A model generated the notes under the pieces. It was not told where the DNA came from and did no database searches. It worked only from the letters and a program-made list of their open reading frames with translations. The translations under genes were made by a program, and so were the position numbers. A DNA stretch of 63,156 bases, filler included, from Nemertoderma westbladi (Eukaryota; Animalia; Xenacoelomorpha), in the NCBI GenBank assembly GCA_032718475.1. It is 3 parts of 3 records of this genome, joined end to end, with 100 filler letters (N's around TTAATTAATTAA, not from the genome) between each part and the next. Parts side by side here need not be neighbours in the genome. Positions count along the whole stretch, not along the records: positions 1 to 24,833 come from JAUCBJ010001805.1; 2 more parts are not named here. The stretch is one strand, 5' to 3'. Positions 1-24,933 of this stretch are shown piece after piece (position 1 is the stretch's first letter; every line of letters begins with the position of its first letter).

Positions 1-2949
1 CCATTGGATGCTAGGAAAGTTGAAGGTGTTCCTCTTTGGCGTCGATTTTCTCCAGCACAAGAACGGCATGCTCGAGAGTATTTGTCATCGGATTTTATAC
101 ACCATAATACAGAGATGTTTAATATCCGTCCACCAGAGTTGCTCGCTATAAAGAAACTTGCTCTATATCATGAGATTGTAGTTCCTAATAAAGGAAGGTT
201 CAGTGGAAACAGCGATATATTTCTTTGCGATCCTTTGACAATACCTCTTTATGATGGCTGTGGTAACAATATTAAATTGAGACGATCTGGAATCAAAAAA
301 CTTAGAGCTTATGTTAACACACTTGGAGAAATACAGGAACCGGTTATTATTCAATGTAGTTTAGATTTCCTTCATTGCCTCCTCATTCGCCTGGACACAG
401 AAGCCAATGCAGAAGAACGGCCAACAACTAAAATATTTGTAGATGAAAGTGAAAGTGGTGAAGTTATACCAGTAGTGAAAGATGTACATCCAAGGGAACG
501 AATTAAATTCATATACCATATTATACTAGCATTAGGTACTTATGAGACAGAATTTGATATATTCGATAATACCACAGGTTTCCGTATACCATTCCAACGT
601 GTAGGACTTATTCGAGACTCAAATAATATAGTTCAAGAGGAAATTACAGCAGTTCTTAGGCGATATCTTGATGAGCTCTGCATCCATCTCCCTCTCCGTA
701 AAAGACAATTCCAAGAATACGTCAAACTGTCCAAAGAAGCCATCGATTCTGTACTGGGTGGAGGTGAGGAATATACCAGTGATCTCCCAGATGTTTCCGA
801 AATAGCCATAAAGGAGAAGGCCGAGGAGGTTATTAACATTATTGAGATGGAGCGTCGTACAACATTGGCAAAGAATCTTATTGGTGCCATGGCTCCCAAG
901 ATGGATGATGTACCTAATATAACCGAAGTGGTAGGAGCTACAGTTGAAAGTCCAATATTCTGGGATCCTATTTTACCAACAGTTCCTCATCAGTCAGAGG
1001 CCAGCATTATTGAGCAGGGTATTGCTCTCAACAAGGCAAAGAATACAATTGACGAATTCAAGGATCCAACACACCTTTCCAATCGTTTTCCATGCTTTGT
1101 TGGCCCACCAGGAGCAGGTAAGACCTTTCTAGTGCAAGCAGTTTCCCTCTATGCTATGTGTTGTGGATTGAATGTGGTATTGACATCTTTAACATCTGAA
1201 AGGGCACGTTCACTAGGAGGAATTCACTTACACCAGTTATTTCCCTTAGAGGTTACCAAGAAAAAACTTTCACCTGACTCAATGGCATCACATACTATTA
1301 AGGCGCTACAACGTTCTGACGCTAAAAAAATGGTTCTATTACAAAGAATGGATGTTTTAGTTATTGAGGAGATTGGACTAATTTCTGCAGAACAGTATGG
1401 TGTTTTGGATACAGTAATGAAGCATATAATGAACACAGACCAACCTTTTGGAGGTAAACTTGTGATTGCAAATGGAGACCCATACCAACTACCCCCCATT
1501 GATGGAAAACCATTCTGGACATCAATCCATTTAGGAACTGCATTTAAGGTAATACTACTAAAAGAATATGTTCGATGCGCAGCAGACCCTAACCTACAGT
1601 TTGTCCTCGAGGCGATCCGCTCCCCAATTATTCCCCCAGATGTTATAGAAGATATAGTCATGATCATTTCTAATAATGCCAAATTTCCACCAACATGGGA
1701 CGATGTACCAGAGCATGCCATGCGTGTTGTTTCAACTAAATTAGGAGAACAAGAAGTAATAAAACACTTTCTTGAGGAGAAGGTTCGTGAACCTGGCATT
1801 GTTGTTCAGCATATGACAGCAGTAGATGAAGTTTACGATAACTTGCGATGGAAGCCAGCTACAGGTTATTCCAAAACTCGGATCGATCGTATCAGCTTGG
1901 AGCCTGAGGAATTACTTGTATTTGTTGGAGCAGTTCTTCGTCTTACATATAATAAAAGTGTTGGGAATGTAAAGTTTTCACAAGGTCAGCTTGGTATTGT
2001 TGTGGTCCTACCCGAAAATCCACAGAGTGAAGATGCTACCATTACTCTTCGCCTCGTTCCTCCAGGAGAGCGTGACCTTACTATTCAGGGTTCAGAAGAT
2101 TGGCCTATATTTGAGGTAAGGAGGCGGTACACAGCAGATGAAATAGTGGGCGCAGGTCTTATGAAAGGTCACCGATTTCAATTTCCTCTCCGGTATTATA
2201 AAGCAAATACAATCCATCGAATAATGGGAGATCAATGTCCACTTATGGCTACAGAAGTAAATAATATTGAAACAGCAAGGAAACACCTCCGCCTATGGGA
2301 GCGATCACAGCTAAATGTATTACTCTCCCGTGTATTACTACTTACTACACTTTACTTTGTTGGTATAAAACTACAGACTTTGTCAACGATAAGACTACTG
2401 CTTCATAAGGAGGACAAGTGGGCGGCATATATCACCTCACGTCTTGCGGCTATTACTGGGGTTGCCTTTCAAAACTTTCAACCAAATACTGACTTTCCCT
2501 ATACCTTCCGAAGTATGGAAATTCCTGAATATATTGCGGGTGTTGTCTATATACTTATATCAACAAAATTCCCGAATGTGTCATATGTAGGTCAAACTAA
2601 AAGGCACCTTATTACGAGACTACGAGAACATAACCGAGGCGATGGAAGCATTTTTACACGAAACACCCAATTTATGCCATGGGTACCTCTGGCATTTATA
2701 CACGGTTTCCCAGTGGATGCGAGTGAAGATGATCTAAAAGACATGCGGCTGCAAGTTGAAAGATATATACATAGAGGAACTAGTTATCATACACTACCAG
2801 AGGAAGTACTACTCACAGCACTAAAAGTTGCACAGGAATATGCCATTCAACCAAGTAGTTGGAATTTACAGTTGGAACGACTAGGACGCCTTGGCTCTAA
2901 TCAAACTGGTGTTGGGCGAACCATATTTGAAGATGCAGATCAACTTTAG
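1..2949 (+). CDS. C-terminal part of Helitron-like Rep-helicase: Pif1/SF1B helicase followed by GIY-YIG nuclease (5'-partial; continues the ORF at 20055-24833)
   Basis: 981-aa open frame. Walker A GPPGAGKT; Walker B-like VLVIEEIG; motif III GDPYQLPPI; EYVRC; FQFPLRYYKANTIHRIMG (cf. Pif1 QFPL..A.A.TIHKSQG); QLNVLLSRV (cf. GQ.YVALSR). C-terminus GVVYILIS...SYVGQTK...RLREHNRGDGSIFT...PW...IHGFP is a GIY-YIG signature. Confidence 0.9.
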   Translation, partial: PLDARKVEGVPLWRRFSPAQERHAREYLSSDFIHHNTEMFNIRPPELLAIKKLALYHEIVVPNKGRFSGNSDIFLCDPLTIPLYDGCGNNIKLRRSGIKKLRAYVNTLGEIQEPVIIQCSLDFLHCLLIRLDTEANAEERPTTKIFVDESESGEVIPVVKDVHPRERIKFIYHIILALGTYETEFDIFDNTTGFRIPFQRVGLIRDSNNIVQEEITAVLRRYLDELCIHLPLRKRQFQEYVKLSKEAIDSVLGGGEEYTSDLPDVSEIAIKEKAEEVINIIEMERRTTLAKNLIGAMAPKMDDVPNITEVVGATVESPIFWDPILPTVPHQSEASIIEQGIALNKAKNTIDEFKDPTHLSNRFPCFVGPPGAGKTFLVQAVSLYAMCCGLNVVLTSLTSERARSLGGIHLHQLFPLEVTKKKLSPDSMASHTIKALQRSDAKKMVLLQRMDVLVIEEIGLISAEQYGVLDTVMKHIMNTDQPFGGKLVIANGDPYQLPPIDGKPFWTSIHLGTAFKVILLKEYVRCAADPNLQFVLEAIRSPIIPPDVIEDIVMIISNNAKFPPTWDDVPEHAMRVVSTKLGEQEVIKHFLEEKVREPGIVVQHMTAVDEVYDNLRWKPATGYSKTRIDRISLEPEELLVFVGAVLRLTYNKSVGNVKFSQGQLGIVVVLPENPQSEDATITLRLVPPGERDLTIQGSEDWPIFEVRRRYTADEIVGAGLMKGHRFQFPLRYYKANTIHRIMGDQCPLMATEVNNIETARKHLRLWERSQLNVLLSRVLLLTTLYFVGIKLQTLSTIRLLLHKEDKWAAYITSRLAAITGVAFQNFQPNTDFPYTFRSMEIPEYIAGVVYILISTKFPNVSYVGQTKRHLITRLREHNRGDGSIFTRNTQFMPWVPLAFIHGFPVDASEDDLKDMRLQVERYIHRGTSYHTLPEEVLLTALKVAQEYAIQPSSWNLQLERLGRLGSNQTGVGRTIFEDADQL

Positions 2950-3184
2950 TACAAACCAGAAATCTAGTAGTAAACTGAATCATTTTATATATTTTCTCCC
3001 ATTTGTTGTGATTTTTATGTATTAAATTATTATTGAAGTTAATGGTGTACATACATAGATTCACATGGTAGAGAACAAGTATCTATCAATGTTTACTTTT
3101 ATATATATATATATATATATTCATGTCCTGTCCAAGCTCGCTTGACCTACTAGTGGTAGTAGTAGTATATTATAATCATATTGC

Positions 3185-3720
3185 AATCTGGAAAGTTTCA
3201 TGATAAATCATTCTATACATGGTGCATGAGACTAAAAAAATAAAATGCTATTCTGGAAAGTTTCATGATAAATCATTTTATACATGGTGCATGAAACCAA
3301 AAATAATATGCCATCTGGAAACGTCCATGACAAATAAAGACAAAGCTTGCTGCCAATCTAATCCCTCTAATAATTCATGACCTAGTCATTTATTGAGATC
3401 ATTGCTCCAACATAAGCATGCAGTGATTAAGAATGGGATATAGTTGAAATAAGCAGGCAGCCCATGAGATTAATACAAACTCATGAGACACTGGACAAGT
3501 ACCTCCTATCTATTTCCTCTTATAATTCATGACATAGTCATTTATTGAGATCACTGCTTCCAACTGAAGCATGAATTGATTAAGAAATGAATATAGATGA
3601 AATAAGCAGGCAGCTAATAATTCATGACATAGTCATTTATTGAGATCACTGCTTCCAACTGAAGCATAAATTGATTAAGAAATGAATATAGATGAAATAA
3701 GCAGGCATGACATTAACACA
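3185..3720. repeat. Degenerate local tandem repeats
   Basis: TCTGGAAAGTTTCATGATAAATCATT-like motif two to three times; TAATTCATGACATAGTCATTTATTGAGATCA...GAAATAAGCAGGCA block three times. Confidence 0.7.
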
Positions 3721-4289
3721 AGCTTATGACCCACCAAAACTGATATCACAAAATATATTTATCACTCATTTATGCATTAAATGGTTGGTTGTAGATTATT
3801 AATTAATAAGTATATATTATTTGGTTATAAAATTCTTTTTGTCTGAGCTCGCATGACATAGTAGTAGTATTTTTAGTAGTATAGCAGACTTCATCCTTGA
3901 GTTTGTTACTATTTATTATAGTTATATTATATATTATTAGTTTATTATTTTTTAATTTCCTGCCTTCCCCTGCTCTTTCTTGACCCCTGCCTCCCTGTAT
4001 CCGTCTGTCTGCCGATGTGAAGAATACCAGATTTCTACTTTCCGGTTTGAATTTTATGGAAATTTTATATATAAAGAAGTTGTATTTGACAAATTTAATC
4101 TTATTAAATGTTTTATAGCGTTTCTATCTTATTACCTGTACAAATACTAATTATTTTAACGTTTTGGTTTGATTAAACCATTCTGTTAGTGAAAACCTGG
4201 TATTCATCACATGGGGGCTTATGTCCACAACCCTTTTTTGTCGTAGTCCCTTCCCTTGGACTGAAGACTGAAGAAAGATAGAAGCCTGA

Positions 4290-4542
4290 AGAATAAAGAT
4301 AGATAAGATGAGATAGGATAGGATAAAACAAGATAGGATAAGATAAGACTGGAAAGAAGAAAGAAGAAAGAAGCAAGAAGAAAGAAGAAAGAAGCAAGAA
4401 GAAAGAAGCAAGAAGAAAGAAGATACGATACAATACGATACGATACGACACGACACGATATGATAAAGATAAGATAAGATAAGATAGGATAGGATAGGAT
4501 ATGATAGGATAAGATAAGATGAGATAAGATAAGAAGAAAGAA
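4290..4542. repeat. Compound microsatellite (GATAA/GATAG/GAAGAAA/GATAC)n
   Basis: Directly visible; it produces the spurious overlapping ORFs at 4151-4650. Confidence 0.9.
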
Positions 4543-4930
4543 GACTCGATATTCGACTTTCTTTTCTTGGACCCTTCGCCTTGGTCCGCTTCCTTGTGGG
4601 ACCCTTCCTTCGTGGTCACCCAATGTATTTGGCACGCATTTTATAAACATAGCATTATATGGACATGTGAAATGTATGTAATTTAGTGAATTTCAAAGGA
4701 TCTACTTGGCACAAACCCTTTGGTTTTCGAACCTTTGGCTGTATGACTGATGCGCATGCCCTGTGTTATTGTAGCTTTTCACTCTGTTAACAAACCATTA
4801 TTTCGCATATCCATACATTGCTATGTTTATAAAATGACTGCTGGGTACATTGTCTATCCTCATCCTGGACGTAGCCGCATCCTACCAGACCTCCGCTAGC
4901 GGAAGCGGGACACCCTTTGCTAGATCCCAG

Positions 4931-4982
4931 GTGTCCAGTACATGGCAGTACTGCTGATGAGTCCTGATGCCGGACGAAACAC
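4931..4982 (+). ncRNA. Type III hammerhead ribozyme (predicted cleavage after GUC, C4935)
   Basis: GTGTC | stem I CAGTAC-ATGGCA-GTACTG | CTGATGA | stem II GTCC-TGATGCC-GGAC | GAA | ACAC pairing with GTGT (stem III). All core nucleotides present. Loop I GGCA is complementary to loop II TGCC. Confidence 0.88.
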
Positions 4983-5332
4983 ATTATGATTTAATATTTT
5001 TTTTATTTATTATTAAATTATAATAATAATATAATTTAAAAGTTTTTTGCCTGGCTTCAAGACTTTATTATAACTATATATTTAATGATTCTACTAGACT
5101 TAATACTATGGTGATATTCTACTGCATTTAAACAACAAAGAAGGACACAATTCTACCAAACTTAAACCAATCAGATGATGTCACAATTCTACCAAACATA
5201 GACGAACCAGAACAATGGCATGATTCTACCAAGCTTATAATAATCATGAGATGGAGCAATTTGGACAAATAAGTTTAGTAAAAAACATACATTTAACTTT
5301 ATCCATATTAATAATTATGGGGGGGGGGGCCT

Positions 5333-5361
5333 TGCGCCTGTGTCAGCAGGACACAGGCGCA
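5333..5361. other. Perfect 12-bp GC-rich hairpin, candidate rolling-circle terminal signal
   Basis: TGCGCCTGTGTC-AGCAG-GACACAGGCGCA in otherwise very AT-rich DNA. Confidence 0.5.
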
Positions 5362-5610
5362 GTTATTGCATATGTCCGATTATACAATTACGCAAGTAAG
5401 TTATATAGACTAACCCATGTATCTTAAAAATGAAATTTTTTAGAAATTAATTATTATAAAGTTATTTTTCTTATTGTATATATCAATTTATTATAATTTT
5501 CTCATGATTTGGATATTTTTTTTTTAAGAATAATGAAATATTTAATTTAATTTAATAATTTATTAAAGTAATTTGTAATCTTCATGATTAATGAAGTAAT
5601 TCTTGCAACA

Positions 5611-5632
5611 GTGGAGTATGCGTATACTCCAC
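5611..5632. other. 9-bp stem hairpin
   Basis: GTGGAGTAT-GCGT-ATACTCCAC. Confidence 0.45.
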
Positions 5633-6774
5633 CATCTCTGGATGGGTTGGTGTAGGATGGAGTCCTCCAGGACGACAGTACTGGCTCTAAGCATTGGTGC
5701 AACACCATTTTTTTTATAATTTTCAGGGCTCCCCGACGACTATGCCATCTTGGCTTCTGGAGAGAACGGCTGAAGGGTTTGGGCTGAAATTTGGCATGGA
5801 GGGTCCATAGGCATTTATAATAGCCAGGAGTTTTTTTGGGCGCGAACCGTACATGAGATCTTGGAAAAGTGCTATTTTATGTACTACATTTTGTAAATAT
5901 TCATCACAATTTGTCAATATTCATCCGCGGGATCATTCTACATAGTGTGTTTTTTAACAGTATCTATGACGACATCTAAAACAATGGCCAATCTGCATAC
6001 AGTATAGAATTGGAAGCTAAATCGCACTACCACTGTTCCAGTTGTTGTATTCCCTTGGAAACTGTACGAATTATGAATAGCTGGCTTTATGTTTATTATG
6101 TGTAGGCATTACTGCATTAATTAATAAATATACTGTAGTTACGGTGTTACGTAATCAGTATGTGTAGGCTGTATGCATAGAATTTAATTTACTACCGCAT
6201 AGCTATAGGCTGTCAGCATTGCCTGAATTACTGCATGCACAGATTTATTTAATAGCTATAATAAATTATTGCCACTGAAACTGTCAGATGGTGTTGCAAG
6301 TGCCTACCACGGTAAATCAGATACGGTAATACTGCAGTGTATTTATTTGTAGTAGGCCTTTTAGAATAACTTGAAATAATATATAAACGGCCTCTCAGGC
6401 AACGCCAGTCAGTCAGTCAGGTCAGCAGGTAGCTAGCTATATTTAAATAATAATTCATAATTATTGTACATACCGCATGTCTGCCAGTAGGCCTAAAGCT
6501 CTGTTATGGGAATTATTATTGTTATTATGTCGCTGTACAGGCTGTTTAGAATTAGTGCATTTGCTTACAATGCCGGCAGTTCTGCATTTGACCCCATTTC
6601 GTTAATATTGTAGTGTAGGCCTACCAGATCAAGTGGCATGGGATCGTGGTTATTTAGCTAGTACAGACTGACAGAGCACAGATATTAATTTATTAGTTAA
6701 AATTAATTATGTTGAAGGATTCTGCACTTTGTATAAATAGTTATATGTCATAAGCATGTGAGGGGGTGGGGGGT

Positions 6775-7600
6775 TTACCCCCCCCCCCCCCCCTAACTTT
6801 TTGCAGCCTTCTATAAAAAAAAGAACAAACGGCGCTGTTTTTTCTGTGTTCAGTTCACTACCGCAATGCATTTTGACCCGGTTCTACAATAATTACACAT
6901 TATTGGTGCGATTTAATATCGACTCAAACCATCCACAGAATACGGCGCGGTTCACCAACTCGGATCCACCAAACAACAACACAGTTTAGACGCGGATGGA
7001 TCAATAAAATCGGCGCGGTTTCAACCGCAATTAAAACCAACCCGACGCAATACAACCAAACATTGTTGCGGTTCGCACAGACTCGGATACACTATGGACC
7101 ACGCGGTTTAGTTTAGGATCAATAATAAATGGAACAGTTTCAACCGCAATGAAACCAATCATAATGGATATTATTGGAAACCAAAAGACCACCGCCCCGT
7201 CGCCACCCCCCCCCCCCCCCCCCCCCACCCCCCTAAGTTTTACAGCCTTCTTTAATAACAGAATAAACGGCGCTGTTTTGATTCACCGAGTTCTGTGCAA
7301 CAAACAATGCGTCGACTCAAGCGACCATTGGTTCTACAATTTTTTACTTTTTTTTAGCAGAATCGGACGAAACGATAAAGAATTCGGCGCGGTTCACTCA
7401 GACTTGGATCCATCAGGCATCAACGCGATTTAGACGCGGATCAATAAGAAAACTGAGCGGTTTCAACCGCAAAATATGCAACCATAAAACGGATCAACCG
7501 ACCCAAGCCATCAGCTATCCGGGATTCGGCGCGGTTCACTCAGACTCGGTGCATCAACGCGGTTTGACGCGGATCAGTATACAGACGGAGCGGTTTCATC
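6775..7600. repeat. Degenerate GC-rich tandem repeat with poly-C tracts
   Basis: Recurring CGGCGCGGTTCACTCAGACTCGGATCCA / GACGCGGATCAATAA motifs; the poly-C...CAGCCTTCT...AAACGGCGCTGTTTT block occurs at ~6780 and ~7210. Confidence 0.65.
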
Positions 7601-8307
7601 CTCAATTAATCCATAATCCGTTATCATCATGTTATCGAATAATTTAAGTTTTAGTATCTTTAGAAATCGTTATAATCGTTAATGTTAATATTGTAAATTA
7701 GTTTTAAAATATGACATAGTTACAATAGTGAAAAAAGTTATCTCAAGTGCAAATTGGTCACAGATGTTATTAATTTGCATTTATTGTTTTGGTTAGAAAA
7801 TACCACCACGGCAAGCTGCTCCTTTCCCGTAATGTTTAAAGATAAATTATATTTTATTATACCCATAAAACACACAGTTGTTATTTGCGGTCTTGTTCAA
7901 CCATTATCTCCAAAATATTCAGTATTTATTTCATTCTGCTGTTACAAGAGCTATTAACATTGTTTCTCACCCTTTTATAATAAATTGTAATAAACATTCG
8001 TCTGTAACATCTGGTCATGTTAAAAATTTGTTGAGTAAAGGGTATCTCTTAGTGATCGACAAAATCTCATCTTAAATTTATACTTTCTGTTTGTTTTTCC
8101 GTTTATATTGAACGGACTGTATCGGTGACAATGTGCTGTATTCGAAAAAATATGGTGGTGTGAGTGATTTGAGCTTATACTGTGGGCTAAGGTACATAAG
8201 TCTAACCAGCTGCCTTCCGTTTATGTCATGTATTCTAGTCATATATCAATAGAGAAGTTTATATTCTAGAATAAATATATGCCTACGGACGGATATTACT
8301 ATAAACT

Positions 8308-9026
8308 CGTCCCTGTCTTGAAAGAACAACACAAGCGACCCATTTTTCAAAAAACACCTTTTTATTGTTTCTGACTAATTAGAGAGCGCCCTCTACCGAT
8401 CAATCGCGGTCTCGAACAACGGTTTTGAAGTTATAGGCCTGACCGTAACAACTCAAGCGACATGTTTTTAGGTTGATCTAATGATAGGCCAATTTTTTTT
8501 ATAACAACCTAAGCGACAACTTTTTATGTATATTTCCATAGTAATCATATGGGACTATCCAGTGGGATAATACAAAAAGGCCATTGTTTTATAATGTGTT
8601 TTATGCTGCATAGTGAAACTTTATATACCTTACTAACGAATTAGTCATGTCTGTTGAAGTTGAAATAGCTGAAAACTGGTTCTCATTTATCTACCAATTA
8701 AGGATGCAAGGTAGAGATGCGCCTTGGTCAGTCCCCTTCAAGCATTCGTGTCGAAACGAAAACTGCCCTGGTCCCCATGCAGGAATCGAACCCACGACCA
8801 GCAGATCGCCGAGAATTCGAAGCAATGGATATTTTTTTACATTTTATCTTAAGAGATAATGTCAAAAAATACAAACAAACATTACAGGTCAAAAGTATAA
8901 ACAGTGCTGAACATTTTAGTCGAAAACACAATAAAAAATAACTAAAATCCTAATTTTAAGCAACAAATCGTTGTTCCTGAACAATTTTGATTTTGGCGCT
9001 TGTGTTCTTCTTTCAAGACAGGGACG
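8308..9026. mobile_element. Non-autonomous TIR element (MITE) with 4-bp TSD
   Basis: TIRs CGTCCCTGTCTTGAAAGAACAACACAAGCG / CGCTTGTGTTCTTCTTTCAAGACAGGGACG, with AACT on both flanks (8304-8307, 9027-9030). Confidence 0.75.
8700..8832 (-). mobile_element. tRNA-derived SINE fragment nested in the MITE
   Basis: Minus-strand B-box GGTTCGATTCC; homologous to 11458-11611. Confidence 0.55.
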
Positions 9027-9739
9027 AACTATTTATTTATTAATTTTTTACGTAGCAACCGTATTGTTTACTGTTTTAAATAAAAGCCCAGTAAATTAAA
9101 TTATATAATTACAGTAGCTATAAAAAAAAGCGAAAATCAAAGAACAAGGTCTGTTCCTTTATTATTATTATCCGACTTGCGCCTCGGAGCGGCGGCTATA
9201 ATAGATTCATAATGAGTTAAAAGAACCACAGTAAACGGTTCGCATTAAGCTGCCCATGTTGGCCATATGGTGTATTGAAAATACAATAATTGGACTACGT
9301 AATATACAATCCAAGATATTTCAAATACTATATTCTTAACATTAATTAATTAAAATTAATTAAATAATAAATTTATTATCAATAGTTAAATAGCGCATTA
9401 TTCATAAAATTCGAAAATCAGTGAAGATGCCACGAGCGCCGCGCCCCCAGTATACAGTATTGTAACCATCTAATGCATGTCTAATTATTTATTATCTAAA
9501 TATTTTTTAACATAATAACTTTTATCATGACGTGCCTAATGTTTATTTAAATGCATTAAATTAAATGAATTCATCAAATCATTAAATTATCATCATTAAA
9601 TTGAATTTATCAAATGAATTAAATTCATATGTATATAATTTTGAACACTTGTTTATTTATTTTTGTAATTAACCTTTTATGTATATGTAACTTACTGCTA
9701 CAGTACTTAAAAAAATAAATATACACTGTAAATTTATAT

Positions 9740-11175
9740 CTTAACCTTTGTTCCACACTTAGTTTAATCAGTTAGTTTAACCGCTGTCCTAACCTTTTGT
9801 TCCTTAGTTTGTTTAACCGGTGTCCTAACCTTTGTTCCACAGCCCTTTTAATTAGTTAGTTTAACCGGTGTTCTAACCTTTGTTCCACATTTAGTTTAAT
9901 CAGTTAGTATTATTATTATTATTATTATCGTACATAATCATCGTAAACGCTGTCTTAACCTTTGTTTCTCAGGAAGTTTAACCGCTGTCCTAATCTTTGT
10001 TCCATCATTAGTTTAACCGCTGTCCTAACCTTTGTTAATCAGTTAGTTTAACCGGTTTTATAACCTTTGTTCCACAGTTAGTTTAACCGCTGTCCTAATC
10101 TTTGTTCCATCATTAGTTTAACCGCTGTCCTGACCTTTGTTAATCAGTTAGTTTAACCGGTTTTATAACCTTTGTTCCACAGTTAGTTTAACCGCTGTCC
10201 AATCCTTTGTTCATCAGTTAGTTTAACCGGGTTTCTAACTGTTGTCCCACAGTTAGTTTAATCAGTTAGTATAACCGCTGTCCTAACCTTTGTTCCGCAG
10301 TTAGTTTAACCGCTGTCCTAACCTTTGTTCATCAGTTAGTTTACCGGTTTTATAACCTTTGTTCCACAGTTAGTTTAACCGCTGTCCAATCCTTTGTTCA
10401 TCCGTTAATTTACCGGGTTTCTAACTGTTGTACCACAGTTAGTTTAATCAGTTAGTATAACCGCTGTCCTAACCTTTGTTCCGCAGTTAGTTTAACCTCT
10501 GTCCTAACCTTTGTTCATCAGTTAGTTTAACCGGTTTTATAACCTTTGTTCCACAGTTAGTTTAACCGCTGTCCAATCCTTTGTTCATCAGTTAGTTTAA
10601 CCGGGTTTCTAACTGTTGTCCCACAGTTAGTTTAATCAGTTAGTATAACCGCTGTCCTAACCTTTGTTCCGCAGTTAGTTTAACCGCTGTCCTAACCTTT
10701 GTTCATCAGTTAGTTTAACCGGTTTTATAACCTTTGTTCCACAGTTAGTTTAACCGCTGTCCTAACCTTTGTTCATCAGTTAGTTTAACCGGTTTTATAA
10801 CCTTTGTTCCACAGTTAGTTTAACCGCTGTCCTAACCTTTGTTCATCAGTTAGTTTAACCGGTTTTATAACCTTTGTTCCACAGTTAGTTTAACCGCTGT
10901 CCTAACCTTTGTTCATCAGTTAGTTTAACCGGTTTTATAACCTTTGTTCCACAGTTAGTTTAACCGCTTTCCTAACCTTTGTTCATCAGTTAGTTTAACC
11001 GGTTTTATAACCTTTGTTCCACAGTTAGTTTAACCGCTGTCCAATCCTTTGTTCATCAGTTAGTTTAACCGGGTTTCTAACTGTTGTCCCACAGTTAGTT
11101 TAATCAGTTAGTATAACCGCTGTCCTAACCTTTGTTCCGCAGTTAGTTTAACCGCTGCCCTAACCTCTGTTCCTC
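9740..11175. repeat. 35-bp minisatellite with 70-bp dimer and ~187-bp higher-order unit
   Basis: Alternating CAGTTAGTTTAACCGCTGTCCTAACCTTTGTTCAT and CAGTTAGTTTAACCGGTTTTATAACCTTTGTTCCA; a variant monomer recurs at ~10231, 10417, 10605 and 11073. Confidence 0.95.
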
Positions 11176-11457
11176 AGTTGTTCCTTCTCTCAGTAGTTTG
11201 ACCTTCATTACATGACCTACTTTGCATTAAGAATATGTGCCGCCCAGTGAAAAATGCTTAATTAAAAGAGGCTATGCAATAATTGGACTACGTAATATAC
11301 GATCCAAGTTATTTCAAATAGTATATTCTTAACATTAATTAATTAAATAATAAATTTATTATCAATAGTTAAATTTCATTAATTAAGAATTGAAATTACA
11401 GTATTGATATATCTTTCTCTTGGGAAGTGGAACGGGTACATTATAGTCATTTATGAG

Positions 11458-11611
11458 TGGATGCAAGGCAGAGATGCACCCTGGTTAGTGGCTAGACCCT
11501 TTAAATTATTCGTGACGAAACCAAAACTACCCTGCACCCCAATGAGGGATCGAACCCAAGACCTCCGATGAGAATTAAAGGCAAAGGATTTAGCCACCAA
11601 GCCACTACACC
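11458..11611 (-). mobile_element. tRNA-derived SINE
   Basis: Minus strand reads GGTGTAGTGGCTTGGTGG (A-box-like)...GGGTTCGATCCC (B-box), followed by a body shared with the 8700 copy. Confidence 0.65.
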
Positions 11612-13147
11612 AAGGTGTAGCAACTACACAGTGGCACTTTATTGTGTCCGTGAAAGGTTTCAACGCGTCGAGTAATCTGATTTCCATTTCGAATATAAAC
11701 AGAGATCGCTTTGCACTTTCGGAGAGTTGTCATTATCATACTGTAGTACGAGAAGTGGACCCTCTTAGATACAAAGTGCAACCTTACGAAAGGTTTCCCA
11801 TTGCCATAATAACTATGTTTTTATTAATCAGGGTATTTATTTAAATTTAGCCTGTACGTTTTTAATATTCTTATAGCAACGAATCAATCAAACCTGAATC
11901 TCACTAATTCGATTCTAAAATTGTCCTTTACGTGGATCAAGTTATATCTACATGCAGGTTGACACAGCACATTTCCTTAGATTTCCTTAGAGGTTTTATA
12001 CAGTTTCCGTAGCAACAAATTTAATCATTATTGTTAGCGTTAGAATATGTAGTACGAAAAAATTCATCCGCGTGAAATATCGATTTATATTTTTTGTAAT
12101 TAAACAACTATAAATTCCCTATAAATATTTTTGATTTTCATCTCCATACAGTATAACATGGGTTCGCGAACCACAGAGACTGTTAGTTCTAGATTTAAAG
12201 TTACAGAAAATGTAGGACGAAATATTCATCCGCATGATATGTCGATTTATAATACCGGTAATTACCAGAATTGTATGCGTTTATACTGTATATTAATATA
12301 CTAGTTAAACATAGGTATTCAACCGGTAGGCCTACCGGTACCGGTACTTTTATAATATTAAATTAAGTTTATTTCTGTTAGTCAGGTACCCGTAGTTCTA
12401 ATTGTTTTTGACCAAAATTAGTCAATAGTAGGCCTACAGGTCTAACAGTGCGTAAAGGGCAATAAACTGAATGGCCGTGGGCCAGGCTTCAATCAAACTG
12501 CAGATATATGGAAACTGAAAGTAATTTAAGTAGCCCTTCTCATCAACATTATTCATTCGTAACATCATTCAGGATATCCTACAGTATGTATTAGGCCTAC
12601 CTGTACCGGTAACATAGAAAACTAAATGCAGAGTTATGCAAATGAAACTGAAATTAATTTAAGTAGTAATTCACTCTCTGACTGTCCAATCAGCCATTAA
12701 CAGATTCATGATATAGGCACTAGTGTACCGGTAGCCCGTGTCACCATTATTAAGCTCTTTTTAATAGCTGTTTTGGGCTGTTTTTGGTTATTGATTTATG
12801 TTCTGGAACATATTGTGGACTCATTACATGTTAAATTGTCTTTGATGGTAGCTAGTGTTTTTATATAGTACCGGTACCGGTAGCTAATTTTAAAAAACAA
12901 AATCAAAAAAAAAATCGTAGGCTTACCTTTACCGGTATTTTTTTTAATTAATGTTATTTGCGTTGTATGCATGGTAACATAATTTTCTAGAATTCTATAG
13001 TATTTAAATATTTAGCTAATATTATGAGTCACACTATTATTCTTAAATAGGCTTTTGAATAAGTTTACATTGGCTTTCTTTTGATATATTGTATTATTTT
13101 GTATTATTTTTATATTCATATTTTATATTATAACCCGAACGTTCAAG

Positions 13148-13238
13148 ATGCCACGCAAGAGAAAGAACACTTGTGGTAATTGTGGTGACGCGTCTCACAA
13201 TAAACGGACGTGCCCACTGAGAGAATTAGAAGGTGGAG
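13148..13238 (+). CDS. Predicted exon 1: MPRKRK NLS-like motif + CCHC zinc knuckle
   Basis: ATG at 13148 gives MPRKRKNTCGNCGDASHNKRTCPLRELEGG (C-x2-C-x4-H-x4-C), ending at a canonical donor GAG|GTAAGT in phase 1. Too short for the ORF track. Confidence 0.7.
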
Positions 13239-13978
13239 GTAAGTTGTGTTGAAGTGGTTTTGATGAACACATTACCAGGTATCATATTTTAATAAATACA
13301 GTAGGCAGAAATAATACGATGATGCTGGCCGTACCTGAGAAGAACTACAGTATAATTTCAGCAATGGATTTCTTGTTAAAAGGCAATTATTTTCTTGTTT
13401 CATCAAGATAAGACATATGCTGCACATGTACCATAGGCCTAAAATACTGTATATCTGTGAAACTACTTTATAGGTACAACTACATAATTACACCCAGTTG
13501 TCGAATAAATGTAGAAGTGGCTTCTGACCTGACAGGAGGACCCATTGACCGGACCCTCTAAATACCATATTGAAGCTTTATATTTTATTTATGTTGTACT
13601 TGTGTATTATTGACCGGACCCTTATTACCACAAAGAAGTAACCTGCATAATCTTGTAACATGTGTTAACATTCGTTTATTGTTTTGGTTCCCCCACCAAC
13701 ACGCATCTGTAACCTGCTCATTTTCTAACCTTGTCCTTTACATGGCAATGGATCCGTTCAATTGAGCAATGGGTCTCGTAAATAGACTTTGTTAATAAAT
13801 GTTTTTGTAAGCGCAGTTAATAAATTATTATAGTACCGGTATACTGTATGGAGCTGGAACTACCGTATGTATTATTGTTACAGTTAATTTCATCTGCTGA
13901 CTTTGTACGACCTACGGACTTTAATTAAACAACCAAGTAATAATTGCTGAAAGAAATATCATTATTATTTATTTGCAG

Positions 13979-15118
13979 ACAACAACGGCCACCTGGATCA
14001 ATCTCTCCTGTCCCTCGATCCATCTGTGGACGCAGGAGTTTTCAACATTGATCCACCCCAGGACGCAGGACCTACCATCACGGCCTGCGATGACGATGTT
14101 GATATGACATCGCAGACGGACGCCACCATCCCACCTGGCGCTAGGAATATTATCGCCCCACCGATTGTCTCCCAGGCCATTGACGCCCCAGCCCTTGTGC
14201 CTGTCCCTGCCCTTGTCCAGATCATTTCCCCTCCTGACCCAGCCCCTGACCCAGCCCTTGTCCCAGCCCCTGCCCTTATTCCTACCCCAGCCCGTGTTCC
14301 TGTCCCAAACCCAGTCCCTGCCCTTGTCCAGATCTTTGCCCCTCCTGACCCAGCCCTTGTCCCAGCCCCTGCCCTTATTCCTACCCCAGCCCTTGCGCCT
14401 GTCCCAGACCCAGTCCCTGCCCTTGTCCAGATCCTTGCCCCTCCTGACCCAGCCCTTGTCCCTGCCCCTGCCCTTATTCCTACCCCAGCCCGTGTTCCTG
14501 TCCCAGACCCAGTCCCTGCCCTTGTCCAGATCTTTGCCCCTCCTGACCCAGCCCTTGTCCCTGCCCCTGCCCTTATTCCTACCCCAGCCCTTGCGCCTGT
14601 CCCAGACCCAGTCCCTGCCCTTGTCCAGATCATTGCCCCTCCTGACCCAGCCCTTGTCCCTGCCCTTATTCCTACCCCAGCCCTTGTGCCTGTCCCAGAT
14701 CCAGTCCCTGCCCTTGTCCAGATCCTTGCCCCTCCTGACCCAGCCCTTGTCCCTGCCCTTATTCCTACCCCAGCCCTTGTGCCTGTCCCAGATCCAGTCC
14801 CTGCCCTTGTCCAGATCATTGCCCCTCCTGACCCAGCCCTTGTCCCTGCCCTTATTCCTACCCCAGCCCTTGTGCCTGTCCCAGATCCAGTCCCTGCCCT
14901 TGTCCAGATCCTTGCCCCTCCTGACCCAGCCCTTGTCCTAGCCCCTGCCCTTATTCCTACCCCAGCCCTTGTTCCTGACCCAGACCCAGTCCCTGCCCTT
15001 GTCCCTGGCCCTGCCCTTGTCCCGATCCTTGCCCCTCCTGACCCAGCCCCTATCCCGGTCCTTGTCCCCGCTCCAACTCCTGCCCTTGCCCGGCCGTCTG
15101 CTTCCAACCATGCTGAGG
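13979..15118 (+). CDS. Predicted exon 2: Pro/Ala/Val-rich coding tandem repeat
   Basis: Acceptor tttgcag|AC, donor GAGG|GTGAGT, 1140 nt (multiple of 3). Contains about seven in-frame repeats of PDPVPALVQILAPPDPALVPAPALIPTPAL. Confidence 0.7.
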
Positions 15119-15435
15119 GTGAGTTATGTTATTTTGTAACAACTGTATCTCTAGTTCTGTGGTATGTAAACATTATAAAAACAACGTAACATTACAATGC
15201 GTTTTACAGGGCTACCTACAACTGTTCACTCTTGCTAAGTTATTATAACCAAATAAATAAATATAATAAATGCTTGGTTGCTCTGTACCAAACAACTGAA
15301 CTGATTACATTAAATGCAGTAGGTATCTTACAGTACAGTACTAACTTATACTTTATATACAGTAGAGTTTATAACCAACTAATAATTCAATATAATGCAA
15401 TGATTACGTAATATTATTATAATTATTATTTGCAG

Positions 15436-15657
15436 AACATATCGATCGTCTAGTCGACTTTCTACTGTCCCTGAATCCATCTCAGGACTTTGACGCACCT
15501 ATTCCCGCTGGCGCTGAGGAAAATATCGCGCCACCTATCGCCGCCTCCCCTAACGTAGTAGACCCTGTCCCCATCCCTGTCCCGGACCCTGTCCCCATCC
15601 CTGTCCCGGAACCCGCCCCCGTCCCCGCACGACCGACTGCTTCCGACCACGACGAGG
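15436..15657 (+). CDS. Predicted exon 3 (HIDRLVDFLLSLNPSQD + Pro-rich)
   Basis: Acceptor tttgcag|AA, donor GAGG|GTGAGT, 222 nt, open frame, paralogous to exons 2, 4 and 5. Confidence 0.7.
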
Positions 15658-15840
15658 GTGAGTTATTAAGTGCTTCTATAATACTATATCTCTTATTATT
15701 TATTATAATTTTTTACATTCTGTATCTTCAACATAATAATAATAATACCAAATAAAATTAACAACAAAATTGTTTGGTACTTAAACTGTATTATACTGAG
15801 TACAATGATTACTGTTACGGTATATTATTATTATTTGCAG

Positions 15841-15954
15841 GACATATCGATCGTCTAGTCGAGTTTATCCTGTCCCTGAATCCATCTCAGGACGTTGCCG
15901 ACCCCGTCCCTGTCCCTGTCCCTGCCCGGCCACCTACTTTCGACCAGGATCAGG
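15841..15954 (+). CDS. Predicted exon 4 (HIDRLVEFILSLNPSQD + Pro-rich)
   Basis: Acceptor tttgcag|GA, donor CAGG|GTGAGT, 114 nt, near-copy of the start of exon 3. Confidence 0.7.
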
Positions 15955-16477
15955 GTGAGTAGGTCTAATGTATAATCATGAATCAGTAATGACTTACATA
16001 CTAAAGGTACGAGCTGCATGAAAGCTGCATTCTACCTACTACACTTAGTAGGCACACGTTTTTATAATTATTTTATTATTTTTAAGGATTTTACAATAAA
16101 AGTATTCTAGAACAATCTTTTATGATATTAATATATTTATTTTTCTATATACTCTATCACGGTATAATTTTAGACATTCTGCCATATTACTGATAAATAT
16201 TTTAAGTTCATTTTATATCCAATTTAATTAATAATACAAAATTTGTTGAAAGTTTCTGTTTAATAAATATTATCGACCCAACTCATCCCCAAATAATTAT
16301 CAATATCCATTTTATATATATTTTAATTTCTGTATTATACTGGTTGTCATCTACATCTGCACTGATTACATTCAGAAACATTACAGACTACATTTTAACT
16401 ATCCGCCCCCGCCCTATTCGATTTATTCTACAGAGTTGATGACAAACTAATTATTGAATATTATGATTATTTTGCAG

Positions 16478-16756
16478 ACCACATAAACAACCTCATCCAG
16501 TTTTTACGGTCCCGGAGTCCATCCCCGGACGTTGCCGCTCGGAACCCTCCTCGCGCTGACGGAGTTATCGCGCCGCCGAATATCTCGAACCCACCTCGCG
16601 CTGACGGAGTTATCGCGCCGCCGATTCGCTCCCAGGACGTTGGAGCTCGGGACCGGATCCCACCTCGCGCTGACGGAGTTATCGCGCCGCCGAATATCTC
16701 CCGGGACGTAGGAGCTTCAACCACCGCCCGTCCGTCCGTCCCGGGAGACACTGAGT
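16478..16756 (+). CDS. Predicted exon 5 (HINNLIQFLRSRSPSPD + three PPRADGVIAPP repeats)
   Basis: Acceptor tttgcag|AC, donor GAGT|GTGAGT, 279 nt, open frame, phase-compatible with the exon at 20055. Confidence 0.65.
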
Positions 16757-17994
16757 GTGAGTGGTTGTTATTATATTATATTTTTAGAATATATTTATTT
16801 AACTTAGTACAACGCTTCTAGAATCCTTTTAATGACCGATCGAGTTCCTTTATATATTGTGTAACAAACCATTCGGATCATTAGAGAAAATCCTGTAAGT
16901 GATTTCTTTGCAAACATATTTTAGTGTTTATTTATTCAGGCAACTGAGTTTCTAAGCATTACAATGTCATACGCAGTTCGTCAGACTCTATCCGTTAAGT
17001 ACAGGCTGCTTTATTTTATTAATTAAAACAATGATATAATTTATAGCTAAAATGTTACAATTATGAAATATAATTTATCCACTTTTTTTTAACAATAACT
17101 ACAATGTTTTTTATAATACTGTAGATTTTTGGTAACTCACACAAAATCCGATTGCTCTACACACTAATCGACCTTTGGTTCCTTCACTAGTTTCTGTATA
17201 TTTTTTTTTATAATATTTGGCTATAATCCATTAATTGGTAACTGTATCTTAGTTAGGCTATTGTTTTGGTTCGAAAAGCCTGTTTCAGTAACCATGTCGC
17301 CGCCATCCGTCAATGTGCTGCCCTTCTCCTGTTGTACAGTATATTGTTTCGGTCAGAATAGTCCGACTATGAACCTTCTTTCTTTTCACTAATGATTAAC
17401 TTTATCATTTACTTTTTTATTAGAACAATTTGTCTCTAAATTCATACAGACACCCACTCCCTCCTCAACTGTATATGAACTGAATACGAATGTAATGCAT
17501 AATGTATGTTTGTGTATACACGAATCCAATAAGGACAGTAAAGTCATGTAAAGTGCTTTCCGTTTCTACTACTTTGTTCACTTTGTGATATCATGTACGC
17601 GACTATTACTACCACCCCCCCCCCCCCCCCTTTGTTATTCTATAATATTTTTATTAATTTTTTATATATTTTACTTACGGAATAAAATAGGTCGACTTAG
17701 TTAACCATTGGGGCATTAACACTTGGGGTAATGTTTCGATCGGCTCTGCGCTTCATAGAAAAATAAAGTATAGTACATATAAAACGTATAAAACGAAAAC
17801 CCTTTTAAAATTATCATATCATAGATAAAAGCCCTAAATCCTAAATATACTACATGCATTATCACAAGTAATTTTTTATCACTAAAATTAATACTAAAAT
17901 TAATAATTCTCCACTAAAATTAATCATTCTTCCACGAAAAATAATCATTAATACCTATTTTTAATTGGCATTGTGATTGAGATACCGGTACATC

Positions 17995-19535
17995 CTGTAA
18001 CCTCATCCTTTCCCCCAATTGGTAACTATATTGTTTATTGTTTTCGTTATAAAAGCCTACCTCTGTAACCTGCTCCTTTCCCCCAATTGGTAACAACACT
18101 GTTTATTGTTTTCGTTATAAAAGCCTACCTCAGTAACCTGCTCCTTTCCCCCAATTGGTAACAACATTGTTTATTGTTTTGGTTATAAAAGCCTACCTCT
18201 GTAACCTGCTCATTCCCCCAATTGGTAACAACATTGTTTATTATTTTGGTTATAAAAGCCTACCTCTGTAACCTGCTCATTCCCCCAATTGGTAACAACA
18301 CTGTTTATTGTTTTGGTTATAAAAGCCTACCTCTGTAACCTGCTCCTTTCCTCCAATTGGTAACAACATTGTTTATTATTTTGATTACAAAAGCCTACCT
18401 CTGTAACCTACTCCTTTCCCCCAATTGGTAACAACACTGTTTATTGTCTTGGTTATAAAAGCCTACCTCTGTAACCTGCTCCTTTCCCCCAATTGGTAAC
18501 AACATTGTTTATTGTTTTGGTTATAAAAGCCTACCTCTGTAACCTGCTCATTCCCCCAATTGGTAACAACATTGTTTATTATTTTGGTTATAAAATCCTA
18601 CCTCTGTAACCTGCTCATTCCCCCAATTGGTAACAACACTGTTTATTGTTTTGGTTATAAAAGCCTACCTCTGTAACCTGCTCATTCCCCCAATTGGTAA
18701 CGACACTGTTTATTGTTTTGGTTATAAAAGCCTACCTCTGTAACCTGCTCCTTTCCCCCAATTGGTTACAACATTGTTTATTATTTTGGTTACAAAAGCC
18801 CACCTATGTAACCTGCTCCTTTCCCCCAATTGGTGACTATATTGTTTATTGTTCTGGTTATAAAACCCTACCTCTATAACCTGCCCCTTCCCCCCAATTC
18901 CAATTGATAACAACACTGTTTATTGTTTTGGTTATAAAAGCCTATCTCTGTAACCTACCCCTTTCCCCCAATTGGTAACAACATTGTTTATTGTTTTGGT
19001 TATATAAGCCTACCTCTGTATCTTGCTCCTTTCCCCCAATTGATAGCGACACTGTTTATTGTTTTCGTTATAAAAGCCTACATCTATAACCTGCTCCTTT
19101 TCCCCTAATTCCAATTGATAACAACACTGTTTATTGGTTTATTGTTTTGGTTACAAAAGCCCACCTATGTAACCTGCTCCTTTCCCCCAATTGGTGACTA
19201 TATTGTTTATTGTTCTGGTTATAAAACCCTACCTCTATAACCTGCCCCTTCCCCCCAATTCCAATTGATAACAACACTGTTTATTGTTTTGGTTATAAAA
19301 GCCTATCTCTGTAACCTACCCCTTTCCCCCAATTGGTAACAACATTGTTTATTGTTTTGATTATATAAGCCTACCTCTGTAACCTGAACCTTTCCCCCAA
19401 TTGTTTACAACATTGTTTATTGTTATGGTTATAAAAGCCTACATCTATAACCTGCTCCTTTTCCCCTAATTCCAATTGATAACAACACTGTTTATTGGTT
19501 TATTGTTTTGGTTACAAAAACCTACCTTTGTAACA
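17995..19535. repeat. 68-bp intronic tandem repeat (about 22 copies)
   Basis: Unit CTCTGTAACCTGCTCCTTTCCCCCAATTGGTAACAACATTGTTTATTGTTTTGGTTATAAAAGCCTAC. Confidence 0.95.
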
Positions 19536-19557
19536 AATTGATTTAATTTGGAGGAAA

Positions 19558-19740
19558 ATGAATTAATTTTAGTTATAAGTGATTAATTTTAGTTATAAGT
19601 TATTAATTTTAGTGATATGTGATTAATTTTAGTGATAAGTGATTAATTTTAGTGATGATAAGTGATTAATTTTAGTGATAAATGATTTTTTTTAGTGATA
19701 AGTGATTAAATTTAGTGAAATGATTAAACTTAGTGAAAAT
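19558..19740. repeat. ~20-bp tandem repeat (GTGATTAATTTTAGTGATAA)n
   Basis: Directly visible; inverted copies (CACTAAAATTAAT) lie at ~17878-17945. Confidence 0.8.
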
Positions 19741-20054
19741 GAAACTATGTTATTTGCAAATTTTCTGAAGATTCCTCACATGAAGGAATAGAATAAAATT
19801 CAAGCGAGTTTTATCCATTGTTTACTATAGGCACTATTATGTACATGACAACCCCGCCCCCCATGTCACATTTATGTCTCAAATTTGTTCACCCCCCCCC
19901 CCCCCCCCGCCCATTTTGACTACGACGTCGATTATGAGTGACTCATTATTTTTGTTTTAAAATATTTAAATGATGTAATTTATTTCATTATTTTTGTTTT
20001 AAAATATTTAAATTTATGTCATTTATTTCAGGATTTAATGTTAAATTATTGCAG

Positions 20055-23000: not shown

Positions 23001-24833
23001 TAAATGATACCTATGGGACCTTGAGACGTGGTCGTCGTAAATATTCCAGTGCAAAGAAACAACAGTTGCTCCATCATTTTGCCTCTAATACATCGAATCC
23101 TGCTGTCTCCCTTCTATTTCCTTCAGCGCAGTTGTTACCAAGCACTTATTGGGCAATGATAGATAATTCTCCTCTTGGTGCTGCACCACAATCTCAAATT
23201 TTTAAAGGAAAATCACAAACGCAATTTGCCCCTCGAGCAACCTCTGAGATGCTAAAGATTAACCTATGTGATGGTGACCTTCCAACTTCACATCAACTCT
23301 CTAACATACACTGGGCCTTCGATCTTAAACTTAATGATGCCCTTAACAGTAATTCGTCAGCAATGGTTTATCGCCGAGGATTGGAACATTTGGCTGAGAA
23401 AGAAAGTCTTCATGTTCAACGTCAAGATTCTGGCTTACCTTACAGTGAGAGTGAATCATCGATGAAAGTGCGAGAGCTTGCAGCAATGGTGAAACGTTAT
23501 CCATGGGATTATTTTGTGACAGTCACGTGTAATGAAAGTGAAACTCCGGGAGTAGCATCTCTTGTTCGACGGATGAAGGAAATATTTGAACATGAGTATG
23601 GAAGAGTGTACCTGTCAAACATAATATTTGTTAATCGCGCTTGGGCCAGATTCCTAAAATACTTTATTCAGTATCTTCAGATGAGTCCAGATGAGGTTTG
23701 TGGGCCGCACCGTCATAGTTTCTCACGTATCGAGTTTCAAGATCAAGGGGCACCAGGTAATAAATGTCACATTCATATTGGTATTTCTTTGTGGCCAGAA
23801 GACAGGACTACAACCTTAGAGCGAATTCACTGCAATCCTACTACAATGTTTAGCTCCAGCTTAGGGACTGATATGGGTTCATTGAAGAGAATGGGAATAG
23901 TTAAGAGTGAGAATGAGTATGTTCATCTATCCAATCTTATGGACAAGCTATCTACTCATGATTGTAAGGCAGCTAATGGTAGGTGTATGAAATATAAGAA
24001 TGATGAGGGAGAGAAAATATGCCGAGTGCCAATCTGTCCAACTAGTTTGTTTTATACATTCAAGGAGAAGGCTGATATTTACGATCAAATGATTACTGAT
24101 ATACTTTTGCAATGCGGATTAGCTGAGCATGAAGAAGTATATGAATATGGAGAATATCGAACGAAAGTGAAACTGGATAAACGTCTCATTGGTGGCCGAT
24201 ATCAATACCCGACACAATCACCCCCTACATTTTTACCAACAATTCCTTTACTGCAACTATTTCTACGATCATGTTTTAATTGTCAAGCGTGCGATAGTCG
24301 TTTCATGACTTCTTATCTGATCAAGTACGAAGTTGGCAAAGAAAGTCGACCAAAGGCAATACTCAAAGGAACAAAGGAGCCAGAAGTTGTTAAGGTGCAG
24401 ACATCAACGCTTGAAAATGAGAAAATTTCGGGACAACGCCTTATACTAGATAAATTACGTAAAGAACCGCAAGGCATGGCAGCTACAGAGATCGGTATCC
24501 CAGAAATGATATGGTATATTATGGAGGAGCCATACACATTCAGTACTTGTAAATTCGTACATATAAACACTAATCCACCAGAATATCGGTGTTGGTATGT
24601 TCCTCCAAACTATGATGCAAAGGAAGATCGCACAAATCCGGGGTCTATAGGAGATTTTGTACCACCATTGGATGCTAGGAAAGTTGAAGGTGTTCCTCTT
24701 TGGCGTCGATTTTCTCCAGCACAAGAACGGCATGCTCGTGAGTATTTGTCATCGGATTTTATACACCATAATACAGAGATGTTTAATATCCGTCCACCAG
24801 AGTTGCTCGCTATAAAGAAACTTGCTCTATATC
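20055..24833 (+). CDS. Large exon of Helitron-like RepHel: OTU-like domain, Cys/His clusters and HUH Rep (truncated by the gap; continues as window 170-2949)
   Basis: The frame of ORF 20222 is open back to an acceptor ttattgcag|GT at 20055. Rep motif I DYFVTVTCN (~23507), motif II EFQ...KCHIHIG (~23732-23782), motif III YLIKY (~24314). The last 169 nt match window 1-169 in the same frame. Confidence 0.85.
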
Positions 24834-24933
24834 NNNNNNNNNNNNNNNNNNNNNNNNNNNNNNNNNNNNNNNNNNNNTTAATTAATTAANNNNNNNNNNN
24901 NNNNNNNNNNNNNNNNNNNNNNNNNNNNNNNNN
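24834..24933. other. Artificial contig/scaffold spacer
   Basis: N44-TTAATTAATTAA-N44, a six-frame stop linker. Confidence 0.97.

Follow-up and report, generated by a model that had tools for sequence, protein, structure and literature searches.

What is a hammerhead ribozyme doing about 2 kb behind the transposase gene of what appears to be a DNA transposon? The question was raised by a first-pass annotation of the DNA analysed here (the window, 63,156 nt in all). At positions 4931-4982 it described a complete type III hammerhead with complementary loops inside a DNA transposon, for which two roles were offered: cutting of read-through transcripts of a tandem or circular element into unit lengths, or definition of an mRNA 3' end. 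The answer depends on the integrity of the motif, on the nature of its host unit, on its occurrence in other copies and on the likeness to known systems.

The hammerhead motif and its predicted folding

The motif lies on the + strand and turned out to be as complete as described. Stem III (4 bp, 4931-4934/4979-4982) is open, and stem I (4936-4953; 6 bp, arms 4936-4941/4948-4953) and stem II (4961-4975; 4 bp, arms 4961-4964/4972-4975) are closed by the loops AUGGCA (4942-4947) and UGAUGCC (4965-4971), which is the topology of type III. All pairs of the three stems are of the Watson-Crick type. The core comprises CUGAUGA (4954-4960), in agreement with CUGANGA, and GAAA (4976-4979), and the NUH triplet is GUC (4933-4935), with the predicted cut between C4935 and C4936. 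A descriptor scan of both strands of all 63,156 nt detected the type III motif once and nothing of type I. Dinucleotide shuffles in 2-kb blocks, scanned on both strands and with relaxed stems included, gave no match in 200 controls. Judged by its sequence, 4931-4982 is confirmed as a real, complete type III hammerhead motif. Comparison with Rfam gave a divided picture. Hammerhead_3 (RF00008) matched over the whole model at 4928-4985 with 32.5 bits and an E-value of 2.9e-4, but the score stayed below the gathering score of 48.5, so that a default Rfam scan misses the motif. The loops differ from those of the RF00008 model. In a permissive scan of 2900-7000 Hammerhead_3 ranked first among nine matches, and Rfam found no other ribozymes in 2900-7000 (E up to 10) or in 7000-24833 (E up to 1).

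The complementarity of the loops was likewise found, with GGCA of loop I (4944-4947) able to form four Watson-Crick pairs with UGCC of loop II (4968-4971). As evidence for the tertiary contact that the annotation had read into it, however, this pairing alone is only suggestive, because four contiguous loop-loop pairs are obtained with 4-7% of random loops of the same sizes. A loop pseudoknot is predicted for about 40% of natural hammerheads, and in type III it is commonly accompanied by a stem I that exceeds stem II by two pairs (PMC3088659). The same difference is seen here (6 versus 4 bp). The cut partitions the 52 ribozyme bases into 5 on the upstream product and 47 on the downstream RNA.

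Folding predictions were less favourable once flanking sequence was included. For the isolated 52 nt the hammerhead fold had -11.5 kcal/mol compared to -12.0 kcal/mol for the best fold, and a bare 66-nt piece was no more stable than its shuffles (z 0.62). With the upstream flank the hammerhead fold was predicted to be disfavoured, because 4908-4914 (+ strand) is complementary to 4930-4936 over seven bases and engages the cleavage site in pairing. The resulting rival hairpin is predicted to hide the cleavage triplet. Compared to the free fold, the forced hammerhead lost 2.6 kcal/mol when the piece started at 4900, 3.1 kcal/mol from 4885 and 4.8 kcal/mol from 4860, and 0.8 kcal/mol once 4908-4914 was left out. 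The probability of stem III went from about 0.1 (4900-5000) to 0.0 (4860-5000), in an energy model that contains neither pseudoknot nor magnesium. Misfolding with the flank would thus lower the odds of fast cleavage, and since the model omits pseudoknot and magnesium, fast cleavage would still be possible. The rival hairpin could also serve as a brake on cleavage.

The RepHel gene, its repeating unit and the place of the ribozyme

The sequence of 1-169 recurs at 24665-24833 (+ strand) with one synonymous difference, directly before gap filler. For this reason 1-24664 is one circularly permuted unit, either a collapsed tandem array or a circle, whose length of 24,664 bp is defined by the 169-bp end redundancy. 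The frame of the RepHel gene spans the unit junction. It runs from the large exon at 20055-24833 (+ strand), the 5' part with the HUH Rep motifs RIEFQ..HIH and Y..KY, through the redundancy into 1-2949 (+ strand), the 3' part with the PIF1 helicase, a C-terminal SLX1-like GIY-YIG domain and the stop at 2949. The tandem or circular, Helitron-like context assumed by the annotation was in this way borne out. Both gene parts align end to end with the same proteins of 2,200-2,800 aa. Five further exons upstream (13148-13238, 13979-15118, 15436-15657, 15841-15954 and 16478-16756, + strand) were predicted with GT-AG splicing and in frame with RepHel, and the gene model, a prediction only, has six exons, five introns and 3,134 stop-free amino acids. 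It starts with a zinc-knuckle-like exon, followed by a Pro-rich exon of 99-bp repeats; the first 450 residues of the long relatives found no convincing match in 13148-16756. Pfam identified PF14214 and PF05970, and the HUH and two-tyrosine motifs are intact, such that a single reading frame joins a two-tyrosine HUH Rep to a PIF1 helicase, as in Helitron-like elements.

The closest named relatives of RepHel came from Styela clava (47-49%). The clade to which RepHel belongs is a large one: using the helicase-GIY-YIG part, 244 clusters were found at E up to 1e-30. Among 17 long relatives (18 of 20 planned proteins minus the window's own) GIY-YIG was present in 15, Helitron_like_N in 11, OTU in 6 and DUF6570 in none, with the domain order [OTU]-Rep-PIF1-GIY-YIG. 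Compared to PDB entries, the GIY-YIG domain matched SLX1 (E 1e-6 with a profile, E 0.04-0.5 with the single domain), the Rep half found no match at E up to 1, and the helicase was at least as far from Helraiser as from bacterial Pif1. On the strength of these comparisons RepHel is a strongly diverged Helitron-like transposase. A Penelope origin of the GIY-YIG domain was considered and found unsupported, as the PDB matches were SLX1 and UPF0213. No description of a Rep-PIF1-GIY-YIG clade was found in the literature searched, apart from one mention of a moss GIY-YIG Helitron in the excerpted text of PMC11417382.

Several other repeats were observed. The unit contains minisatellite arrays of 35 bp (9944-11179), 68 bp (17995-19471) and 20 bp (19562-19736), and diverged pieces of the 68-bp minisatellite unit recur at 37745 and 43045. 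A 720-bp stretch (8307-9027) has 31-bp terminal inverted repeats around a B-box repeat (8792, - strand), and a related B-box repeat is located at 11556 (within 11464-11600); both stretches are likely nested MITE- or SINE-like insertions. A BEL/Pao-type gag ORF (DUF1759) is found in related copies of 73-89% identity at 26570-33602, 48607-53624 and 61392-62615; together with the relatives of RepHel, it points to an animal host. The gaps at 24834-24933 and 48507-48606 consist of two runs of 44 N flanking a 12-base AT filler, which is an artefact.

The hammerhead is co-oriented with RepHel and its cut lies 1,986 nt past the stop, which fits the approximately 2 kb given by the annotation. Two AATAAA hexamers (3239-3244 and 3333-3338, + strand), candidate poly(A) signals of RepHel, are found 290-390 nt past the stop, and the cut follows 1,691 and 1,597 nt downstream of them. 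A 12-bp GC-rich perfect hairpin (5333-5361, + strand) ends 426 nt downstream of the cut; the unit has just two GC-containing hairpins of at least 9 bp, and this one is the stronger. As transposition of Helraiser is ended by a 3' hairpin (PMC4778049), 5333-5361 is a candidate 3' terminator and thereby a candidate terminus. The start codon of the next unit follows 8,213 nt downstream of the cut. A Helitron1 (HLE1) end, i.e. a hairpin with a stem of at least 6 bp followed by CTRR-T, was not found on the + strand of 2950-13200, and the search for sub-terminal inverted repeats gave nothing convincing, only low-complexity or single weak inverted matches. With respect to HLE2-type features, the hairpin 5333-5361 is present, the inverted matches are weak or of low complexity, and none of the 17 relatives has DUF6570. 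The ribozyme lies within the repeating unit that carries RepHel. To this extent the claimed location inside a DNA transposon holds; the true termini were not found, and that the ribozyme also lies within the transposon's ends is what we infer.

Upstream of the ribozyme, inverted repeats at 4621-4852 (53-nt arms, 81%) and 4012-4215 (28-nt arms, 82%) would form double-stranded RNA in a run-on transcript. The second hairpin of the unit (9 bp, 5611-5632) is part of a GC-richer patch (5606-5705) with higher depth in run X2. It matches no Rfam family, and part of the patch resembles, by eye, the reverse complement of 4863-4890.

The surroundings of the ribozyme were also inspected for an inserted retroelement. 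No second or degenerate hammerhead occurs in the window, and around the ribozyme neither a tandem unit nor a flanking direct repeat of at least 9 nt was present. No tRNA gene was found, no Pfam domain was detected in 20 of the 28 ORFs of at least 60 aa in 2950-13100 (two more were scanned separately), and the scanned ORFs of the unit contain no reverse transcriptase (RT) domain. In these scans the ribozyme showed no sign of sitting in a separate retroelement. Three known carriers were compared and did not fit: a non-LTR retrozyme, as the motif is type III and single copy with no 150-450-bp tandem repeat; an LTR retrozyme, as there is one hammerhead and no direct repeat of at least 9 nt across it; and a Penelope-like element, as the scanned ORFs have no RT and the GIY-YIG domain is closest to SLX1.

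Copies in public sequencing runs and possible roles

The region was present in three of six listed runs (shares 0.78-0.88), which come from two studies, one of them possibly the source; among the listed runs, no RNA run contained it. Contigs over 4600-5900 were of the window type, were variants with substitutions or indels on both sides, or matched the ribozyme only. Unlike flanks join at 4930 (runs X1 and X3) and at 4980 (X1, X2 and X3). Among the loose ends of X1-X3, 3 of 11 distinct places were at most 2 nt from the matching ribozyme edge, for which a rough uniform chance is 4e-4. This count is based on 22 of 72 rows, with a tolerance of 2 nt chosen post hoc and four X5 rows excluded; run X5 matched AT-rich pieces only and was left out of the counts. 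A contig end at 4982 is probably a deletion variant of the window's family. The contig ending at 4980 continues with GCC, which would still pair with 4930-4932; provided that the 5' strand has stayed the same and both ends belong to the same locus, stem III would gain one pair. With unlike flanks that start at the edges of the ribozyme, the ribozyme-only contigs indicate that the DNA of this one organism retains the motif in several different contexts. In contigs over 4600-5900 these ribozyme-only loci could not be linked to a RepHel gene.

Contigs of the variants come together over 4924-4982; in the variant copies about 5% of flanking sites differ, while the motif is perfect. None of the 26 listed variant sites (4 substitution and 18 indel rows lie beyond them) falls within the 52 nt, compared to 2.8 expected (p about 0.06; about 0.15 for substitutions alone), and motif invariance among close variants is a weak signal. 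The main X1 contigs had a depth of 99 before the ribozyme and of 79, 86, 68, 71 and 74 after it. Since depth is similar on both sides, the ribozyme does not resemble a high-copy insert of its own here. A depth peak over the ribozyme was discounted, as overlapping contig ends were counted twice. Viral contigs gave no match to the exact 27-nt ribozyme pattern; two 33-nt phage matches (E 0.3) were taken as chance. Searching for DNA of the clade by protein scans, viral contigs yielded only five distant helicase matches or none, the metagenome scan gave a single match (L006) that encodes no RepHel relative, and genome contigs gave none.

From all of this, we tentatively favour as a plausible explanation that the hammerhead cuts transcripts running past the predicted poly(A) signals of RepHel in a repeated Helitron-like transposon. 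RNA polymerase II would transcribe past the poly(A) signals and across the ribozyme, the folding of which may be helped by the loop I-loop II pseudoknot. Cleavage after C4935 would give an upstream product with a cyclic phosphate and a downstream product with a 5'-OH, and would separate the message from the RNA that continues toward the element's likely end and the next unit. The benefit could consist of pre-mRNA release and of insulation of tandem or circular copies from read-through, the cut acting as a fail-safe for read-through transcripts. Co-transcriptional cutting in cells is known for an engineered hammerhead placed downstream of a poly(A) site, and the polymerase-bound product of such a cut was reported to be degraded (PMC2288634). 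As a 5'-OH end is a poor substrate of Rat1/Xrn2 (PMC2702688), cutting need not stop the polymerase, and release and insulation appear more likely than termination itself. Several points counted in favour of a read-through cut: the complete core and stems, the empty shuffles and the Rfam E-value; the sense orientation relative to an intact gene model of 3,134 aa, downstream of two AATAAA and upstream of the strongest hairpin of the unit; the unlike flanks joining at the ribozyme edges; the similar depth on both sides in X1; and the absence of retroelement marks from the scans. The disfavoured fold with flank, the weak invariance among variants, the ribozyme-only loci that could not be linked to a RepHel gene and the fruitless search for termini counted against it. 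The unit-length cutting proposed by the annotation has the right geometry, with one cut per unit, but would yield a 24.7-kb RNA for which no use is known in a transposon that moves as DNA. That the ribozyme is moreover a built-in 3'-end part of a widespread clade of giant Rep-PIF1-SLX1-like GIY-YIG Helitrons is possible, but we regard it as rather doubtful.

Four other explanations have to be weighed against the cutting of read-through transcripts. The ribozyme might be a passenger, namely what is left of a small RNA-based element, or a dispersed solo hammerhead, which entered the long non-coding region of the unit, was amplified with it and may still cut, without any use to the Helitron. The ribozyme-only loci with unlike flanks fit such an independent spread equally well, the unit carries other likely insertions (the B-box repeats at 8792 and 11556, the 31-bp inverted-repeat pair of 8307-9027), and isolated pseudoknotted type III hammerheads, the host of which is not known, occur in termite and fly genomes (PMC7936874). 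We nevertheless hold it to be unlikely, although deserving serious attention, in view of scans that found no further hammerhead, no tandem unit or direct repeat around the motif and no trace of an RT, of the even depth of the main X1 contigs across both flanks, and of a motif that is perfect next to flanks in which about 5% of sites differ between variant copies. For an RNA at work in the cycle of the element, in turn, the HDV ribozymes of R2 and other LINEs, where cleavage makes the RNA 5' end, provide a model: the downstream product could be the useful one, as the 5' end of a non-coding RNA of about 430 nt to the hairpin, of unit length, or circular. The 47 of 52 ribozyme bases that stay downstream, the single ribozyme per tandem or circular unit, and an upstream rival hairpin that could act as a switch would suit this proposal. 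It is made quite improbable by the movement of Helitrons as DNA via circular DNA intermediates (PMC4778049, PMC6431247), by a unit without RT, and by downstream sequence that is AT-rich and carries indels in the variants.

A role at the end of the message was judged improbable as well. Here the ribozyme would make or destabilise the mRNA end, resulting in a 2-kb 3' UTR and an untailed message, and transposase output would be limited as in Clec2, where an atypical type III hammerhead in a 3' UTR provides the precedent (PMC6155905). Only five ribozyme bases stay on the upstream product, and the AATAAA hexamers are candidates only, in an AT-rich region. Still, two canonical AATAAA stand 290-390 nt past the stop, separated from the cut by microsatellites and long inverted repeats. 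The suggestion that the ribozyme defines the mRNA 3' end lost ground because the AATAAA signals at 3239 and 3333 precede the cut by about 1.6-1.7 kb. Finally, the low Rfam score, below the gathering score, and the misfolding predicted with the flank would be expected of a chance look-alike or of a ribozyme permanently misfolded by its flank; given 0 matches in 200 shuffles and the sharp-edged recurrence in other contexts, this is very improbable.

Comparison with known systems

Hammerheads of animal genomes are mostly type I and those of plants type III, with ties to Penelope-like elements, Terminons and retrozymes (PMC7229834, PMC7761336, PMC6155905, PMC6765202, PMC6431247, 10.64898/2026.07.22.740005); the annotation likewise described animal hammerheads as mostly type I and tied to retroelements. 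Pseudoknotted type III hammerheads are found in HDV-like RNAs from toad and termite, and isolated motifs in the genomes of termites and flies (PMC7936874). For an animal, a type III motif is uncommon, yet not new. What is unusual is the pairing with a Helitron, as animal hammerheads are mostly tied to RNA-based mobile elements. No report of a hammerhead in a Helitron was found in the literature searched, which has few subscription papers, and in the excerpted text of the HELIANO paper (PMC11417382), with its one GIY-YIG Helitron from moss, the word "ribozyme" is absent. If the motif is kept behind the transposase of a DNA transposon, the jobs of hammerheads would widen to transcript control in rolling-circle elements. 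If it is a built-in part of the clade, hammerheads would serve DNA transposons as well as retroelements, and the clade could be the missing host of some isolated invertebrate type III hammerheads. If it is a passenger, a compact type III hammerhead of this kind would still be uncommon, with several families in a single animal genome.

With the hammerheads of plant LTR retrozymes, viroids and satellite RNAs (RF00008) the motif shares topology, core, 6-bp stem I, 6-nt loop and 4-bp stem II (PMC7936874). It differs from the plant type by a 7-nt loop II and a possible Watson-Crick pseudoknot, in place of a 4-nt loop and non-canonical contacts, and from plant LTR retrozymes by its single copy, the lack of an LTR pair 600-1000 bp apart and its likely animal genome. 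Closer in other respects are the HDV-like RNAs from toad and termite and the termite and dipteran hammerheads, which are likewise animal, type III and equipped with a GC-rich 4-base loop pairing (PMC7936874, PMC3088659). There, GCCR pairs with YGGC, whereas the arrangement here is the opposite way round (PMC7936874, PMC3088659). In those hammerheads, moreover, helix I is extended and interrupted by an internal loop and helix II has 6 bp, in contrast to the short helix I found here, and the excerpted descriptions of the genomic termite copies give no recognisable ORF within 2 kb, where the present host is a Helitron-like unit.

Non-LTR retrozymes and Penelope/Terminon elements resemble the locus in placing a hammerhead in repeated mobile DNA (PMC7229834, 10.64898/2026.07.22.740005, PMC6431247). 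Their hammerheads are type I, located in 150-450-bp tandem units or terminal repeats and dependent on RT, and the one described here is type III. Penelope also has GIY-YIG in its host protein; here, the domain resembles SLX1/UPF0213 and no RT is present. The rodent Clec2 3' UTR hammerhead is similarly type III, behind coding sequence and on the sense strand (PMC6155905), but is discontinuous and part of a host gene, compared to a compact motif in a transposon unit. The host unit itself shares with Helitron-like elements (Helraiser, PDB 7LCC; HLE2/Helentron; moss HelenSM92, PMC11417382) the two-tyrosine HUH Rep followed by PIF1. Further common features are tandem arrays, already known for Helitrons (PMC12001565), OTU in some relatives and a terminal-type hairpin. 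For known Helitron-like elements, no ribozyme was found reported in the literature searched, as far as the excerpted sources go. The unit described here stands apart from them by its strong divergence and by a C-terminal GIY-YIG domain, which is shared by 15 of the 17 long relatives.
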